Below, piece after piece: positions 41,101 through 63,918 of a stretch of DNA of 64,000 nucleotides. The first letter of the stretch is position 1; the number at the start of each line of letters is the position of its first letter. Below the pieces are notes generated by a model, which had not been told where the DNA came from, ran no database searches, and saw nothing but the letters and a program-made list of their open reading frames with translations. Source of the DNA: Bugula neritina (Eukaryota; Animalia; Bryozoa); assembly GCA_964035545.1 (NCBI GenBank), contig OZ037766.1:1860001-1924000 (forward strand), written 5' to 3'. The position numbers and the translations under genes were made by a program.

Positions 41101-41223
41101 ATATGCAAAGTGGATGCAGTAATTTTCCAGTTCTCTATAGTAAGGATTAGGTGGTAGATGACCTCTAAAGTGTGAATTAACTACCCAAAATAGATCTCTA
41201 TATGCCACCAGCATGGGCGGTGT

Positions 41224-42445
41224 AGCATGGGTGGCCATAGCATAGGGTGGCCATAGCATATAATAGGGTGGCCATAGCATACAATAGGGTGGTCATAGCA
41301 TATAATAGGGTGGTCATAGCATATAATAGGGTGGTCATAGCATATAATAGGGTGGCCATAGCATACAATAGGGTGGTCATAGCATATAATAGGGTGGTCA
41401 TAGCATATAATAGGGTGGTCATAGCATATAATAGGGTGGCCATAGCATATAATAGGGTGGCCATAGCATATAATAGGGTGGCCATAGCATATAATAGGGT
41501 GGTCATAGCATATAATAGGGTGGCCATAGCATATAATAGGGTGGCCATAGCATATAATAGGGTGGCCATAGCATACAATAGGGTGGTCATAGCATATAAT
41601 AGGGTGGTCATAGCATATAATAGGGTGGTCATAGCATATAATAGGGTGGCCATAGCATATAATAGGGTGGTCATAGCATATAATAGGGTGGCCATAGCAT
41701 ATAATAGGGTGGCCATAGCATATAATAGGGTGGTCATAGCATATAATAGGGTGGCCATAGCATATAATAGGGTGGCCATAGCATATAATAGGGTGGCCAT
41801 AGCATACAATAGGGTGGCCATAGCATATAATAGGGTGGTCATAGCATATAATAGGGTGGCCATAGCATATAATAGGGTGGTCATAGCATATAATAGGGTG
41901 GTCATAGCATATAATAGGGTGGTCATAGCATATAATAGGGTGGCCATAGCATATAATAGGGTGGTCATAGCATATAATAGGGTGGCCATAGCATATAATA
42001 GGGTGGCCATAGCATATAATAGGGTGGTCATAGCATATAATAGGGTGGCCATAGCATATAATAGGGTGGCCATAGCATATAATAGGGTGGCCATAGCATA
42101 CAATAGGGTGGTCATAGCATATAATAGGGTGGCCATAGCATATAATAGGGTGGCCATAGCATATAATAGGGTGGTCATAGCATATAATAGGGTGGCCATA
42201 GCATATAATAGGGTGGCCATAGCATATAATAGGGTGGCCATAGCATACAATAGGGTGGTCATAGCATATAATAGGGTGGCCATAGCATATAATAGGGTGG
42301 TCATAGCATACAATAGGGTGGCCATAGCATATAATAGGGTGGCCATAGCATATAATAGGGTGGTCATAGCATATAATAGGGTGGCCATAGCATATAATAG
42401 GGTGGTCATAGCATATAATAGGGTGGTCATAGCATAGCATAGGGT
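41224..42445. repeat. 21-bp minisatellite CATAGCATA(T/C)AATAGGGTGG(C/T), ~57 copies
   Basis: 1.2-kb near-perfect array; explains the three ~400-aa repeat ORFs. Confidence 0.97.
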
Positions 42446-43553
42446 GCAGTAGGCAAGTTGCATAAAGCACAAACTTATACTATTTCCTCTACCTCCACAG
42501 CTACTATAATAATTACTAATCTACTTTCTCAAAATATTCAATTGTCACATTATACTGTTCATTATAATATCAAGGTGGGATAACAGAGTCATATGATAGA
42601 GTTAGTATCATGTAACCACAAGTGGGACTCCATATGTAATCATGGCAGTGATTTATTTCTCTCTCCTAGATTTGAAGTGTGACAGACTAACTAATCATGA
42701 AAAGCACAAACTAGCAAATAAGCATCTGGCACTCCTTATATCTCCAACCCCCTCCCCACCCCCCTGCTCACCCACCCCCTGCTGATCTGAGATGGAACAG
42801 TAACAGAACCTTAGGAAGTCAGAAAACAAAGGAAAACTTGATAAAGTTGCTAGTTTTACTGCAAGCTATCTTACTGCATGCTATATTACTGCATGCTAGT
42901 GTGTATAATAATAGTGTACAGTAAATAGGCATAACTCAGCAACTGGATGCCACCTAAAGCCACCATGAAATGCTGGTAGAGAAACTGCAAACAAAGAGGA
43001 AGGCCCTGGCACCATCAGCTTTGAAACCAGCTTCATTAATATAACACAGAGAGGCCCAGGGCAGCCTGGATGTTCAGTAAGTAATCCAACTCTGATAACA
43101 CAGCAACCGGCAGCAGACAATGTAGACAATGTGCGAAGAATAAGGAGACATTCATATTTCCACCCAACATCCAACTTGCATAAGGCTGAAAGGGTGATAG
43201 GTCTAAGGTCAAGGCAGGGACAGCGTGTAGAACCTGTTCTAAGAAAAGATGCTGGATGGAGCAACAAGGGATGTGCAGAGGCAATGTTTGAGCTATAAAC
43301 ATTACACAACAGTTCAACTAACCACACAATATGGAGCATCAGTTGCTGGGTAGAGAAGTCAATACAGACTAACTACAGGATAGTAAAAACTAACAGAACT
43401 TTCTTAACATACAAAATCAGGAATTATCCCCCCATATAAAAATATTCAACATATTGCTGCAATGAGATTACGGAGCTTTATTTTTAATACAAAAAGCATT
43501 TCCTGTGTGACACAGGATAACCTGCCCGTCTCACCGCTGAAACAGGGACATAC

Positions 43554-52589: not shown

Positions 52590-52995
52590 AGCCAATATAT
52601 TACATATTATGCACTATGTATTACAGTATATTACATACTATACACTATACATTACAATATATTACATACTATACACTATATATTACAATATATTACATAC
52701 TATACACTATATATTACAATATATTACATACTATACACTATATATTACAATATATTACATACTATACACTATGTATTACAGTATATTACATACTATACAC
52801 TATACATTACAATATATTACATACTATACACTACAATATAATACATACTATACACTATATATTATAATATATTACATACTATACAGTATATATTATAATA
52901 TATTACATACTATACAGTATACACTATAATATATTACATACTATACAGTATGTATTATAATATATTACATACTATACAGTATACACTATATATTA
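52590..52995. repeat. 31-bp AT-rich minisatellite TATATTACATACTATACACTATATATTACAA
   Basis: Visible array; explains ORFs 52585-52929 and 52616-52867. Confidence 0.9.
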
Positions 52996-53612
52996 TAGTT
53001 ACCAAGGCAACAGCTATGAATATAACAACACTTGGAACAAAGAGGAGAAAGAATAATGTAAGGTGAGGTTTAAACTTGAGAAGATTTAACCAAGAACAGA
53101 GCAAATATTTCATGGGAATGAAGTAAGTAAAAGTTGCTAGTGATCTGCCAAAGAACCTCAACAAAACCGGCATTGTGTTGGTAGAAAATCTACGTGTTAG
53201 TGTGATCGAGGAAATGACATGAGAGACCATCACATCATTAATTTGATTGGTTAAACGTGAATAAATACTCACCATTAATAACTACTATAACATACTTGGA
53301 AGATAAAGTTGTTAGACTGAGATACTCACATCGGAGTCACTATGTTGTAACTAAGGGTAAAACTGAGACCTAAAGATAATTTTTCTGCATCTATTTTACA
53401 ACATTTGGCTGTACAAAACATTCTAAAATAGTCATTTACAACTTATTTAGTATAAACATATATACACAGCTATACTGGCCAGCACTGGTCTGTAAAGATA
53501 AACAGTCAAATTGTTAGTAAAAGTCCCCTTAGGTTCACCAATCATCATCACAGGAACAATGCTTCTTACATTAACGTACACATTACATCTAGCTTCCTAT
53601 AGGAGTTGTCTT

Positions 53613-57834: not shown

Positions 57835-57935
57835 GAATGAGTGAGTGACTAAATGAAGGAGTGAGTGAGTGAGTGAGTGAGTGAGTGAGTGAGTGAGTGA
57901 ATGAAGAAGTGAGTGAGTTAGTGAGTGAGCGAGTG
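57835..57935. repeat. (GAGT)n microsatellite in the predicted 3' UTR of the Tae4-like gene
   Basis: Visible; explains the SLTH ORF 57812-58030. Confidence 0.9.
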
Positions 57936-58064
57936 GGTGTTCGAGTGAATGGTGGGTGAGCGCGAGCGATAATAAAAGGCCGAGTGACTGAGTAAATGAG
58001 TGCCTGACTGTCTTCTTCTAGAATATCCAACGATTGCTTATAGATCTTGTTTCTCGCCGAACTA

Positions 58065-61000
58065 TCAACTTGGACAAGGAGAGCCTATCAAAAAATGCAC
58101 CACATACAATTTCAAACGCAAACATAAATCTAGTCTATGGCCTGAATTATTATAACTTTTACATGCTATGTCATATTGTGGATATCAATTATTAGTTGCT
58201 TATTGAGTTTGGAGTTATGTGTTTTTAATTGTAAAAAACACCCTATTCTGTCACTAATTTATGGATTTCAAACATAGTAGGGTCAAACTTGGTAGGGTCA
58301 ATTCATACAATCATTACTTTGGTCAAATCTTTATATTATGACACCAACCTTTACTTGTTGCATATGCATAAAGAAAGAATGTTTGCTAAAAGCAACTTCT
58401 ATAGCAAAAATGACAATACTTATACCTGAAAGTTCCCAGAATTCAATACTGATCTTATGATGCAAGTTGAAGAAGTATCTACTTTTAAAAGGCTTGTCAC
58501 AGTCCCACAATGCTATGCGGGCATCCACTCTGTTTCCATGACTACGGAATGTTAGTATTCTTAGAATCCCTCGCTTCTGGTGTAATTTCTCGAGAATTTC
58601 CTTTAAGCTGAACTTATTTGTAAAATAGAGCTCGGGGCTTTTGTATTTCTGAGCTAAGTAAGGTCCAAAGGCTGTGGTCCTAAATATGTACTGCAGGTTA
58701 TCAAACCCACGTATACTGTCTGCCGATTTGCCCTTACTGATTTCAATCGGCTTGGTCCCCATGCTATGTTCTCCACCAAGTTTGTTAAAGGCTACGGATA
58801 GCCTGAGAGCTGAAGTATCTGCTAGATTAAGGGTTGGATAATGGGCGTCTCCAACTATAAACTGTATCAACTCGTCTCCATAGGCCCCTCCATAATGTCT
58901 GTATCCAGGATATACTTTACTTAGTTCGTGAAATGATGGCAGAGGCATCTAAAATCATGGAGTAGAGTTTGATAGTATAAAATAAAGCCATTCCTGAGAA
59001 AATTTAGCAGCATGTGTTTTAGTAATTTTTATTTAAACTTTCATTGGATGATAGATTGAAGGTTTTTATTTTCAAATAAACAGTATGTTTATGGGCTCTA
59101 TGCTTTAAAAGAGCTGCATGGGTTTTACTCAAGTATGGATATTAGTTGTCATTACAAATTGAAGATGTTTTTGTTGGAAGGCAAACTCTGTAAGCATTTT
59201 ACAACTCAAATCTGAAGGAATGAAGTGTATCATGTAATAACATACATGTTATAGCACCTGTGTGCTATAGCAAACAATAAAGCGTAGCAGTAAGTACGGT
59301 AGTGTAGAAGTAAGTAGTGTAGAGGTAAGTAGAGTAGAAGTAAGTAGTGTAGAGGTAAGTAGTGTAGAGTTAAGTAGTGTAGAGGTAAGTAGTGTAGAGG
59401 TAAGTAGTGTAGAGGTAAGTAGTGTAGAGGTAAGTAGAGTAGAGGTAAGTAGTGTAGGAGTAAGTAGTGTAGAGGTAAGTAATGTAGAGGTAAGTAGTGT
59501 AGAGGTAAGTAATGTAGAAGTAAGTAGTGTAGAAGTAAGTAGTGTAGAGGTAAGTAATGTAGAGGTAAGTAGTGTAGAGGTAAGTAATGTAGAAGTAAGT
59601 AATGTAGAAGTAAGTAGTGTAGAGGTAAGTAGTGTAGAGGTAAGTTCACAAGTTGTAATATTTAGTGGATTATAGAGATAATCCTAACAGATTAAGGTGA
59701 GTAATCCTGTCCACTAATTCTCCTTTAATACTACGAATTAGCCGTCCATCACTAAATTCTTACCAAGGAGTACATATTGTACGTATACATTAGTGTATAG
59801 TATACATACAAGTGTGTATAGCAGGTATACATGTTCATTTATATTTCCTATTAAATATTATTTGTACATCAATTTTTTGTAAAGGATTAAGTCCAACAGT
59901 AACCAAGGTCTTCAGGTGCAGTTTGGGCTTCAATAACGTCTAACAAAGAAATTCGAGGCTTAAGAGAGTCCAACACATTTTTTCTAAACCAAAATACAAA
60001 CTAGCCTTTGGAAAACTGATAATTATGTTATTCTGAAAAAAGGATTATATAATTTCATCACATTATATAGTATTATATTATATGGTATTATCTACTCTAC
60101 TCTACTAGAATGGCATTCACGCTGTTGCGAATGTTTACTCAAGATCTCAATCAGTACAGGGCTAGCTAATAGAAAAACCTCCATTCTCTCTATCCAAATT
60201 TTAAACTGATAATTATAAACCAAAGCTCGGTCATAAACAGAGCCCCATGGATTGACATTGTTTTTATAAAGTCGCAATTTCAATGCTCTTTTATGGGCTC
60301 AAACCTCTAATAAAAGGTGATTTTTGTCTTACAGATAACATCTTCATTCAAACTCAAATCCCCAAACAGACAAATTAATAATCAAAATTAACTTTTAAAC
60401 AAAAGCTTTGTGCCAGCCAAACATGTGACACCCACTGCTATCCAAGACTAATCAATTTTCTTTTTATTTCTTAGAGCGCCAACTTCGAGACTAAAACCAC
60501 ATGATTGGCTGTGAATTAGTCAAACTGTGATTTCCTCCGCCTTTTTTTTAGGTGGTTTATTTGCAACTCTAACATCTTAAAGTTTGAATATGTTTGTTAA
60601 ATGTGCACCCATCATGGTGAATATTAACCAGTATATTATTTACCTTAACTGAGTTTTAAAGAGTAAAGAGAATACAATACAGCATTGAACTATAGGCCAG
60701 GTGTTCCATGTGCAGAGTTTTAAAAGCTGTTTGTTTGTGGATACTAACTGCTTTACTAAACAAACAAGCAACCATGTAGAAATGCCATTTGGTGTGAAAA
60801 GCTAGCCACAAGTATGCTATTGAGTACTCAGCCTATGTAACTATGTACTCAACCTAAGTTGCTATATGCTACAAGGTTAGGTGGCTAATGCCAGATACTT
60901 TCATTATAATATTATAAATGTATGAAAACTTAAAAACTATCAAACATACTTTATAGAAATATACTGATAACTGTTAGTATCAGGTTTGCTAATGAACTAT

Positions 61001-62011
61001 AAACACATTTTATATAGAGTACAGGTAGCACAAGCTAGAGAAAACAGAATTTGTCAACACAACTATATGAATTTGCAGATTTGTATTGATTAAACATATA
61101 TTCTGTAATAATATAGCAAGATACTATATAATATAGCAAGATAAACATACATTATATCATATAGCAATATATTATATCTAAAAGGTTCATAAGGTACATT
61201 TGCGCTTCTTCCTGTACATTACATTTATGTCTTTATGCTGGGTGATTTTCAAAGGTAAAAATAGTGCAAATTACCTTACTATTGTTGTGTAAGATATATT
61301 TTTGTAGAACTAAATCTTTAGGTCAGAAAATTATATTATAAATAATCATTAATTAGGTGTCAAAACTGTTACAAACCAATATCATTGTAGTTATGATATT
61401 ATTATCAAGTTTAAAACTCATAAGATAACAATCGCATTTTAAATCAGTTTAAATAAAAAGGAAAGTTAACCCTAGAGTATATTTGACTTGAAACAGCAGC
61501 TAATTGTTTTCTCTGTATACAATATATTACATATATATTATTTAGAATCTGCATTACTCAACATGGTATAATTAGCATACTAATTAGATGAGCATCTTCT
61601 ACTTTGCCATTTCAACTCTAAACAACTTACAATCTGTGTAAATATGTGATACATACTTCCATTGATGCTTTTAATAGTTTGCAATAAATAAATTCACATA
61701 ATTTAAGGAAAATTCATATAAGATTTACTTCACAACTACCCAAATCATCATTTATAATGTCTATAATGATCATTATACCCATAGTGTCTTAACAGTTACA
61801 CAACATTTTATATACATCAAAGCTTTACCACATGATTATAATATTTAATTTAATATAATAAAATTAGTATTACTTTCAATGTCATAAAGTTGTATTTAAC
61901 ACAGCAGCAGCAGCTGCAACAGCATGCAGTAACATATTATATACTTACCGTGGCCACGATGGTAAAGAGATGTGGAATAATTTGAGTAACTACGTAGCAG
62001 ATTAGGAGCAT
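58065..62011 (-). CDS. Secreted Tae4-family (T6SS amidase effector 4 / dae4-like) protein with substituted catalytic residues, ~201 aa, 3 exons
   Basis: Exon 1 61949-62011 MLLICYVVTQIIPHLFTIVAT (signal-peptide-like, donor GTAAGT, phase 0). Exon 2 58426-58948 (acceptor TTTTAG) carries the Tae4 blocks in order: LPSF..L, DTSALRLSVAFN (cf. NAC.IRMSY.LN), GFDNLQYIFR (cf. GSDKKRYMFR), KRGIL (cf. KQGII), DARIALWD (cf. TGHVTLWN), IEFWEL (cf. ATFWSL). Exon 3 58065-58084 (GSPCPS*) is less certain; AATAAA on - at 57721-57726. Confidence 0.82.
59300..59645. repeat. 15-bp minisatellite TAAGTAGTGTAGAGG, ~23 copies, in intron 1 of the Tae4-like gene
   Basis: Visible array; explains the LPLHY ORF 59230-59649. 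Confidence 0.95.
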
Positions 62012-62130: not shown

Positions 62131-63516
62131 AATAGTGAGATTACAAAATCAAGAGTGGATAACTCTTCAACTTCAAGTACAGATGAAACTTTTTTATGTT
62201 ATTAGTATGCGAAGCTGATTATATGAAATCAGAAACTTAGTATAATTTAGCATAGATGCATACCTATACCATATACAATATATTTATTATTAGGTATATA
62301 ATCACCTATATGTAATATATATTATTATATATACATTCCTTTCTCATAGCTCATGGATCTCTTTCTGACAGAGCTCGAGAAAGGTTTGAACCCCCTCCCC
62401 GAAGCTCTCTGCCTGACAAACCCCCTTTAGAGTAAGGTAAATAGTGTATTGGAAAAGTTGGGAAGTCCTGCATGTTATTCATAAAAAATATTGCAAAAGA
62501 AGTTATGTTATCCTGAGAAGTTTAACTCTCCCTTCCAAAAGCTAAAATTCCCGAAGACAACCAAAGTACACAGGCCATTGTATCTCTCCATTATTGTACT
62601 TGAAGCGCTAATAATCTGCCCTTACCAATTTTAGCATATAGAAACTTAGAAATCTCTTGTAATGGTATGGATATATACTACCAGAAAATGACAGGAGAGT
62701 TGTGCTACCTTGACTATGAAGACTTTCAGCTCATTATAACACTATTTCAATAGACTAATTTCTAATTTTTATTATACTTGAGAGCTTTTAAAAACATGCA
62801 TATAATATCTATTAAAAATTAAAAAAAATCAGCAAGAGAAAATTGATAATCTCAAAATTTGAAAATGATGTAATCAGTAGCAAAACCAAAACCGTTTGAT
62901 TAAGTAATGTAGGCGAAGAAGAAAATATTTTAAATGTGCGTAAAGTGCTCAAGCAAGAATGAGGTAGAAAAAGAAAACTCAAAAATATACACAAGATGAA
63001 TCTATGACTAACAACACGAATTAAAACTGGCATAATTTTGGTGTCATTGATGTAATACTGAAATATGATTAACGGTCTGCACAAGAGAATATGAAAGTAG
63101 AACAAAATCGAGCACATAGCTGTGTTAAAGTAGAACATTGTTTTAGCTAAACTAGATTAAGTAAATAGTATTTGCTAAATAACACTTTGAGTGTCACAAA
63201 ATTAAAAATCCACAAAAATACCGTATTTGTTAAAGTTGAAGCAAGTGTTGCACACAATACTGAAGGACATTACGAAACACTGGCATTTCTCCACCAGCAG
63301 TTTAAAAGTTGAAACTTAAACATTAACGAGTCTGTGAATAGAGCGTAACTTCTACTGAATTCAACAAAGAGTCACAACCAAAGTATCAGTGTATAAGGCT
63401 AGCTGCGTGAACGCCCCTTCCATATGGCTACCGACTAGAAATACAGAAGCACAGCTAGCAAGGAGGCTTGCTGCCGTTGCTGCTTCCAATTTCGCATACA
63501 AAGATCTCTGCATGAC

Positions 63517-63918
63517 TCATTCATCGATCTCTTCACTGTGCGCAGTCATGAGTTTCCCATTCACATCACCAAAATCCTCCGTCTGATTGGCTAGAACTCC
63601 GGGCATGTCGGCGTCGGGAACCGCCTTGTGTGAGAGCAACTTTCTCTCCATGAGTAACTTCATGACAGTGTCGATATCTTCGCACGGCACCTAAACAATA
63701 TACATGTGTCGGTACAGTGTATACACGTGTCAGTACAGTGTATACATGTGTCAGTACAGTGTATACATGTGTCAGTACAGTGTATACATGTGTCAGTACA
63801 GTATATACATGTGATGTACTCACCAGTGTGTGCCCGTAGTAGTACGAGGAGATGTAATATTCAGAGATGTTTGCTGATGCTATCGGGTCAGACATTTGGG
63901 CAACTATTCCAGCAGTCA
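63517..63918 (-). CDS. CASTOR: CASTOR/GATS-like protein (cytosolic arginine sensor family), last two exons; the remainder lies beyond the window
   Basis: Exon 63824-63918 TAGIVAQMSDPIASANISEYYISSYYYGHTL and exon 63517-63690 VPCEDIDTVMKLL...EEIDE* match the final CASTOR ACT domain as recalled (CGIVAQI..PLAAADISAYYISTFNFDHALVPED.I..V..L). Confidence 0.88.
63697..63812. repeat. 21-bp tandem repeat TATACATGTGTCAGTACAGTG filling most of the last CASTOR intron
   Basis: ~5.5 copies between the donor (63823) and acceptor (63691). Confidence 0.9.

Follow-up and report, generated by a model that had tools for sequence, protein, structure and literature searches.

Tae4 amidases and their relatives in animals

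Domesticated bacterial amidase toxins are known as bacteria-killing enzymes. The dae genes were reportedly defined by Chou et al. in 2015, who are said to list dae4 of molluscs, an annelid and Nematostella. A precedent of another kind is found in PGRPs of the PGRP-SA and PGRP-LC type, in which an amidase fold has lost its catalytic residues and binds peptidoglycan. The bacterial T6SS amidase effectors of the Tae4 family (PF14113) include Serratia Ssp1 (4bi3) and the enzymes of Salmonella (4jur/4j30) and Enterobacter (4hfk). Cys44 and His126 of Tae4 are each essential for activity, as given in the excerpted text of PMC3695027, and two positions are known for the third triad residue, an Asp (excerpt of PMC6277958). 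In Ssp1 the active site is lined by the loop between the first helices and by the chain after the LW turn (excerpt of PMC3852654). Nematostella encodes nvDae4, a secreted, Cys-dependent peptidoglycan hydrolase whose activity is abolished by C63A, and a second tae4 homologue, LOC5507684 ('Dae4-like'), in which the catalytic Cys is predicted to be missing; cGAMP induces this second gene (log2 fold 8.3) in an NF-kB-dependent manner, and it was left unstudied in the excerpted parts of that paper (PMC8713801). A recently acquired Tae4 is described in Giardia muris (excerpt of PMC7641422), and in the excerpted text of PMC13514124 Tae4 occurs only in the abbreviation list.

The gene described here lies in a window of 64,000 nucleotides from Bugula neritina, this window being the whole stretch of DNA analysed. 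Its product is predicted to be alike in fold to bacterial Tae4 over the whole domain, with which it shares the motifs xxxRxSxxxN, YxxR, G-I-(I/V) and LW(D/N), and it has in common with Ssp1 the long loop between the first two helices. Unlike the bacterial enzymes, the Bugula protein is without the Cys, the His and the triad Asp, is encoded by a three-exon gene with a leader, and carries the clade-specific residues His61, Arg130, Cys150 and Glu169. Non-catalytic PGRPs embody the same idea in an unrelated fold, zinc T7-lysozyme-like as opposed to papain-like NlpC/P60; their binding and signalling partners have been shown, whereas the Bugula protein is known from sequence and a model. As with nvDae4, this is an animal gene of predicted Tae4 fold with a probable secretion leader and a presumed bacterial origin, but nvDae4 has Cys63, cuts peptidoglycan and kills B. 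subtilis (excerpt of PMC8713801), whereas Cys is found in 0/88 members of the clade defined below. LOC5507684 is likewise a Cys-less animal Tae4 homologue, yet it is one Nematostella gene, as against a clade of five phyla, and its accession adjoins that of nvDae4. Translated by eye, the excerpted probe stretch of LOC5507684 reads like a canonical Tae4 around the His, so its Cys loss was probably a separate, local event outside the clade.

A spliced gene without the catalytic dyad

By tblastn against the window, a three-exon gene with a product of 201 aa was located on the minus strand, with both introns bounded by GT-AG (Table 1). The exon-2 translation (P0001) is 96% identical to Bugula neritina EB796_019845. 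The exon-3 tail corresponds to residues 191-200 of the model of a named B. neritina protein (P0002), where mean pLDDT is 94, and the 3' UTR extends to at least 57982. No second copy of the gene was found by tblastn in the 64-kb window, and no adjoining immunity gene was seen; this is a spliced three-exon animal gene and not a bacterial gene beside its immunity gene. It sits in AT-rich, repeat-rich DNA. Short-unit tandem arrays are present at about 59270-59650, inside intron 1, at 57850-57950, in or just beyond the 3' UTR, and at 52600-53000 and 41200-42500, and these yield spurious repetitive ORFs. Exon-like open frames of a neighbouring gene at 63359-63690, also on the minus strand, end about 1.3 kb upstream of exon 1. 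The B. neritina records (P0002, P0013 and P0014) comprise two near-identical copies and one paralogue of about 50% identity (P0014), all with the Ser/Arg pair.

Table 1. Features of the Tae4-like gene, in window coordinates
Feature	Position	Strand	Basis
Exon 1 (coding part), 21-residue hydrophobic leader, probable signal peptide	61949..62011	-	tblastn of B. neritina P0002, 75% over 24 aa; spliced X4 and X9 contigs cover exon 1, with loose ends running into exon 2
Intron 1, 3000 nt, phase 0, GT-AG	58949..61948	-	acceptor position common to related loci
Exon 2, 523 nt, entire Tae4-like domain (P0001 residues 1-174)	58426..58948	-	Pfam, AlphaFold model, Foldseek, VIA-align
Intron 2, 341 nt, phase 1, GT-AG	58085..58425	-	skipped by X1, X4 and X9 contigs; covered by X12
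Exon 3 (coding part), short tail, conserved Cys (58074-58076), stop codon	58065..58084	-	tblastn, contigs
Ser46 (Ser67 of precursor), catalytic Cys position, codon TCA	58811..58813	-	profile and joint alignments
Arg144 (Arg165 of precursor), catalytic His position, codon CGC	58517..58519	-	profile and joint alignments
His137 of RSHG, beta-hairpin turn (strands 125-135/140-150), poorly conserved	58538..58540	-	88-row alignment, model
Residues 13-24, YPGYxxxGGxY loop, kept in clade	58877..58912	-	matching Serratia Ssp1 loop lines active site; alignment to Ssp1 weak at sequence level
Cys150 of LWDC, 98% conserved (weighted) in clade	58499..58501	-	88-row alignment

Contigs from three sequence runs of three studies (X1, X4 and X9), presumed to be RNA, join exon 2 to exon 3 precisely and leave the intron-2 sequence uncovered, and one 819-nt X4 contig spans all three exons without introns. 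Divergence of these contigs from the window is about 3-4% (96-97% identity), and their differences produce the same amino-acid changes as those in the named B. neritina protein, so that expression is documented for a near-identical copy only. A further run, X12, matches the window exactly across exon 2 but is possibly the window's own source and therefore adds no independent evidence; in run X2, no sequence matching exon 1 or intron 1 was found. The Ser and Arg codons are without difference in four runs, all covering both, and both residues recur in the three named B. neritina proteins, which excludes a base error. Sequencing error was accordingly rejected as a source of the substitutions. The preliminary description, which had read a Cys to Ser and a His to Arg replacement, an unlikely origin by a single base error, an intact frame and intact splice sites from the letters of the window, was thus accurate on each of these points, with the replacements recovered by tblastn, profile and joint alignment. 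It had also called the leader intact, and here the reading frame stands, whilst its hydrophobic helix suggests a signal peptide.

Purifying selection was evident in exon 2, where dN/dS against X1, X4 and X9 was 0.28, 0.22 and 0.19 (Fisher p 0.02, 0.003 and 0.001), values drawn from 14, 16 and 17 counted differences, those near contig ends having been left out, in three comparisons that are mutually dependent. In the 107 of 435 pairs of related metagenome loci with pS of 0.02-0.6, dN/dS was invariably 0.03 to 0.44, with the qualification that pairs share ancestry. Comparisons of the window with loci L001-L004 were left out because pS was 0.65-0.81, near saturation. The Arg-type loci L002-L004 gave dN/dS of 0.03-0.10; these are relatives of the paralogue P0014 and have evolved more slowly than the window's lineage. 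The gene is an ancient pseudo-amidase under purifying selection. An expectation of dN/dS below 1 had been set against neutral evolution in the preliminary description, and neutrality was not borne out; its proposal of a pseudo-enzyme is upheld by the missing Cys in the orthologues, by selection and by the splicing of near-identical copies.

A Tae4-type papain-like fold is predicted across the whole domain. P0001 matches the Pfam Tae4 model (PF14113) at 23.2 bits (E 7.9e-5), under the cut-off of 27 that is exceeded by the paralogue P0014 (32.0) and Lingula P0065 (32.6). The AlphaFold model, built from 71 sequences, has a pLDDT of 93, and Foldseek gave E 2.2e-8, with all 11 of its matches at E<=0.001 being Tae4. 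With VIA-align, among 48,161 chains, Z was 17.7 for Ssp1 and 17.2 for Salmonella Tae4 as opposed to 6.6 for the next fold, and superposition on these two gave an rmsd of 2.4 over 148-150 residues at 18-19% identity. A single-sequence search of PDB sequences returned no match, whereas profiles did match, and a search of the ESM Atlas returned bacterial Tae4 clusters only.

Within this fold, the Ser lies in the context LADTSALR and the Arg in RVDARIALWD. A profile of 71 family members places D-T-S on N-A-C of Salmonella and Enterobacter Tae4, and (G/A)-H/R-V-A-L-W on G-H-V-T-L-W, both gap-free, and when the family is aligned jointly with 78 Cys-His proteins, Ser and Arg share their columns with Cys and His, equivalent to Cys44 and His126 of Salmonella Tae4. 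A mis-register of the motifs was rejected. In the model, helix 46-57 begins with the Ser and strand 140-150 contains the Arg, which we take to be the positions expected for an NlpC/P60 dyad. The third triad Asp is also absent from P0001, with Ala146 at His+2 and Lys155 at His+11, assigned by count and not by superposition (His+11 as counted from excerpts of PMC3695027 and PMC6277958). Judged from these residues and by established chemistry, the protein cannot act as a Tae4 cysteine amidase, and it is very probably non-catalytic altogether. Cys150 was considered as a relocated nucleophile and rejected by inference, since it is at His+6 and the tail of every named full-length member provides another Cys.

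A Cys-less clade across invertebrate phyla

Homologue searches and cluster look-ups produced 237 proteins, 236 of them with a domain match. Leaving out 40 of these (35 near-duplicates or extra cluster members and five fragments, multi-domain or misaligned rows), and a further 17 with a gap at either site, left 179 rows, from which the clade was defined as the 88 scoring >100 bits. These form one branch with support of 95 in FastTree, and in an IQ-TREE analysis of a 46-row subset, including 26 of the 88, clade support was 99/96. Twelve rows are attributed to species, namely Bugula (3), Littorina, Babylonia, Pomacea, Pinctada, Pecten, Paralvinella, Owenia, Lingula and Tubulanus, which we take to represent five phyla (Bryozoa, Mollusca, Annelida, Brachiopoda and Nemertea). 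The gene tree groups the molluscs together and most annelid-like rows together.

At the nucleophile column the clade has no Cys, with Ser in 41 rows, Ala in 37, Thr in seven and Asp, Gly and Lys in one each; nor was Cys found there in any dropped row scoring >100 bits. Codons at this site vary among the metagenome loci (TCN, AGY, ACN and GCN). The His column retains His in 69 rows, with Arg in 17, Phe in one and Tyr in one. Named Bugula and nemertean proteins are among the Arg rows, all of which fall in one subclade (99/89) together with one His row, indicating that Arg arose once and then reverted, or arose twice. Ser and Thr alternate within this subclade, 11 to 6. Conservation of both residues in orthologues had been proposed as a check in the preliminary description; the absence of Cys is universal in the 88 rows and Ser is frequent, but most rows keep the His, so Arg marks only a minority. 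Several residues absent from active Tae4 are near-invariant in the clade, these being His61 (87/88 rows), Arg130, Cys150, Glu169 and Gly95-Pro96. At the column of the RSHG His, by comparison, His is present in nine rows, three of them near-identical Bugula copies, and 45 rows have a gap. The post-W turn of the window protein reads DKPFKSRYF where the clade has DHFHQSRDW; on this ground it is possibly a paralogue that has diverged, with an end branch of 0.82 in IQ-TREE.

Intron positions, read by eye in 29 metagenome loci, are also shared. G|GT occurs at the intron-2 donor position in 28 of the 29, with L005 running through like a transcript, and an in-frame AG just upstream of the domain start, as for intron 1, was present in 24 of the 25 loci reaching the domain start. 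The simplest reading of these positions is one ancestral gene with these introns. Together with the tree, they point to loss of the Cys no later than the common ancestor of molluscs, annelids, brachiopods, nemerteans and bryozoans, so that the loss would be ancient and the change of His to Arg a later one within the subclade. The conversion postulated in the preliminary description therefore corresponds to a real loss, but one that extends beyond this gene and this species. Its description as possibly undescribed likewise holds in part, in that no description or test of a catalytically dead lophotrochozoan clade was found in the article texts searched (Chou et al. 2015 may show members), whereas a Cys-less, immune-induced Dae4-like gene of Nematostella is already published (excerpt of PMC8713801).

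Animal-type rows were set apart from the 13 Cys-His rows by a 93/80 branch, not starred, in the unrooted IQ-TREE tree, in which no donor of the animal gene was identified. The AU test did not reject a tree that joins the clade to two eukaryote-like Cys-His rows (p-AU 0.08), so the clade and active animal Dae4 may or may not share one acquisition. Eleven rows adjoin the clade and have D/S, D/V, D/L, C/S or C/D at the two sites; this sister branch, whose named relative is the coral Oculina patagonica, shares with the clade the YPG..GG.Y loop and the LWD..F.Q segment (hhalign 99.9%). Loss of the dyad may possibly predate the cnidarian-bilaterian split.

Other architectures were encountered amongst the relatives. 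In P0268 of O. patagonica and in P0135, the Tae4-like domain is fused to a Hint module (source label hedgehog-like), an arrangement known from hedgehog-type secreted proteins. In their branch the nucleophile Cys is kept and the His is missing; the majority of members have gained a Cys one residue before the His position that could bond the old nucleophile. P0173 and P0144 combine the Cys-His form of Tae4 with a eukaryote-like architecture; in one the domain follows a partial kringle domain, and the other has three Tae4 domains in tandem. Both are candidate active animal Dae4 forms. P0118 is a long-branch Cys-less relative outside the 88-row clade, with Glu at the nucleophile column and with the His and LWKC kept.

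Putative functions of the disarmed protein

The exon-1 leader has a best 11-residue hydropathy of 2.4 and forms helix 2-14 in the P0002 model, consistent with a signal peptide; clearer leaders are found in the paralogue and in orthologues. A hydrophobic leader is present in most of the named full-length members, and both the LWDC Cys and a tail Cys in all of them; net charge (K+R-D-E) is positive in every one, from +4 to +22. Together these features suggest a secreted, disulfide-tied, basic protein, in which Cys150 is the predicted partner of the exon-3 Cys. Long basic His/Lys/Arg-rich tails past the tail Cys were observed in P0033, P0036, P0065, P0093 and P0104 (mollusc, annelid-type and brachiopod); such tails are absent from the Bugula proteins and could be antimicrobial or surface-binding extensions.

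Conservation at non-strand positions of the segments matching the Ssp1 cleft was 0.64 (n 25) as opposed to 0.47 at other coil positions (n 60; p 0.001), a comparison confounded in that some of these cleft segments are helical, and in which a structural role may account for the conserved Gly, Pro, Tyr and Cys. Higher conservation of the cleft segments suggests a retained binding surface, although fold constraints could give the same result. Asp44 accompanies Arg in 16 of the 17 Arg rows. Its counterpart in Ssp1, Asn48, shares a water with the catalytic His (excerpt of PMC3852654), which makes an Asp-Arg pair over the old catalytic centre plausible, and a pairing of Asp44 with Arg144 could close the site.

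Our leading explanation, held at slightly less than an even chance, is that this is an intact, spliced, Cys-less Tae4-fold protein that is secreted, does not cut and would hold peptidoglycan stem peptides in its former cleft. The conserved cleft-lining loops, the leader and the basic charge point towards peptidoglycan binding, and a role as a recognition, trapping or scavenging protein is one that we consider nearly, though not quite, as probable as its opposite. On this explanation, a bacterial Tae4-like gene would have been acquired once, before the divergence of the lophotrochozoan phyla, and would have lost its Cys early, His being replaced by Arg later in the subclade containing the named bryozoan and nemertean proteins. 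The product would be secreted with a disulfide linking LWDC to the tail, and its conserved cleft-lining loops may still bind the D-Glu-mDAP/Lys stem or a similar anionic cell-wall ligand, such that the bound protein would coat, trap or flag bacteria. For the Arg, two roles are conceivable, namely to seal the former catalytic centre through a pair with Asp44 or to touch a carboxylate of the ligand. A link to immunity has a precedent in the Cys-less Nematostella Dae4-like gene by analogy only, that loss being probably separate, and retention of a single lineage over five phyla is also compatible with a non-immune role. A more far-reaching version, which we regard as rather unlikely in its entirety, has a Tae4-type toxin gene entering early animals, losing its chemistry before the lophotrochozoan radiation, perhaps even before the cnidarian-bilaterian split given the dyad-less coral sister branch, and being kept in five phyla as a second, PGRP-independent family of secreted peptidoglycan-recognition proteins, of which the Arg form would be the most fully disarmed.

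The strongest competitor, less probable than peptidoglycan binding but to be taken seriously, is a secreted non-catalytic scaffold whose ligand is a host peptide, protein or matrix component, with a part in development, secretion or skeleton building. Very old, low-copy retention, the grouping of molluscs and of most annelid-like rows in the gene tree, the newly near-invariant residues and the fusion of the coral sister branch to a Hint domain would all suit such a role, but the conserved segments match those lining the Tae4/Ssp1 cleft, and all characterised Tae4-fold proteins in the literature consulted act on peptidoglycan (excerpts of PMC8713801, PMC3695027 and PMC3852654). An improbable alternative is that the dead copy is a decoy or helper that would protect or steer a real enzyme by binding either an active host hydrolase or the Tae4-immunity proteins of bacteria. 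Tai4/Rap proteins do attach to Tae4 at the entrance of its active site (excerpts of PMC3695027, PMC6277958 and PMC3852654), a surface kept here, and the active and Cys-less copies of Nematostella are induced together (excerpt of PMC8713801); against this, immunity proteins are periplasmic and sequence-specific, and no active Cys-His partner from a named lophotrochozoan emerged from homologue searches that were all seeded with the dead clade.

Equally improbable in our view is a rewired hydrolase, with Ser46 as nucleophile and another base such as His137 of RSHG, as the preliminary description had entertained, or the clade-invariant His61. The combination of Ser with a retained dyad-site His and Gln/Glu at His+11 is found in molluscs, His137 is modelled in the hairpin beside the Arg strand, and His61 is almost universal, but a nucleophile column that so often holds Ala or Thr, alternation of Ser with Thr in the Arg subclade, the rarity of His137 and the loss of both known third triad positions from P0001 speak against it, and the RSHG version in particular is not supported by the alignment. 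Least probable of all, and by now largely refuted, is gene decay or faulty assembly confined to the window. The exact window allele has no recorded RNA source and its Pfam score is under the cut-off, whereas the frame is open, the introns are canonical, spliced near-identical contigs were recovered in three studies, dN/dS is about 0.2, and named orthologues and paralogues have the same residues.

These results identify a Cys-less lineage of domesticated amidase toxins that selection has maintained in no fewer than five animal phyla. Should its members bind peptidoglycan, they would constitute an unrecognised pattern-recognition family of papain-like fold in molluscs, annelids and their kin; should the ligand be another, a bacterial weapon would have been turned into a core animal secreted protein. 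Under either reading, annotation as 'T6SS amidase effector' overstates the activity of genes in this clade.
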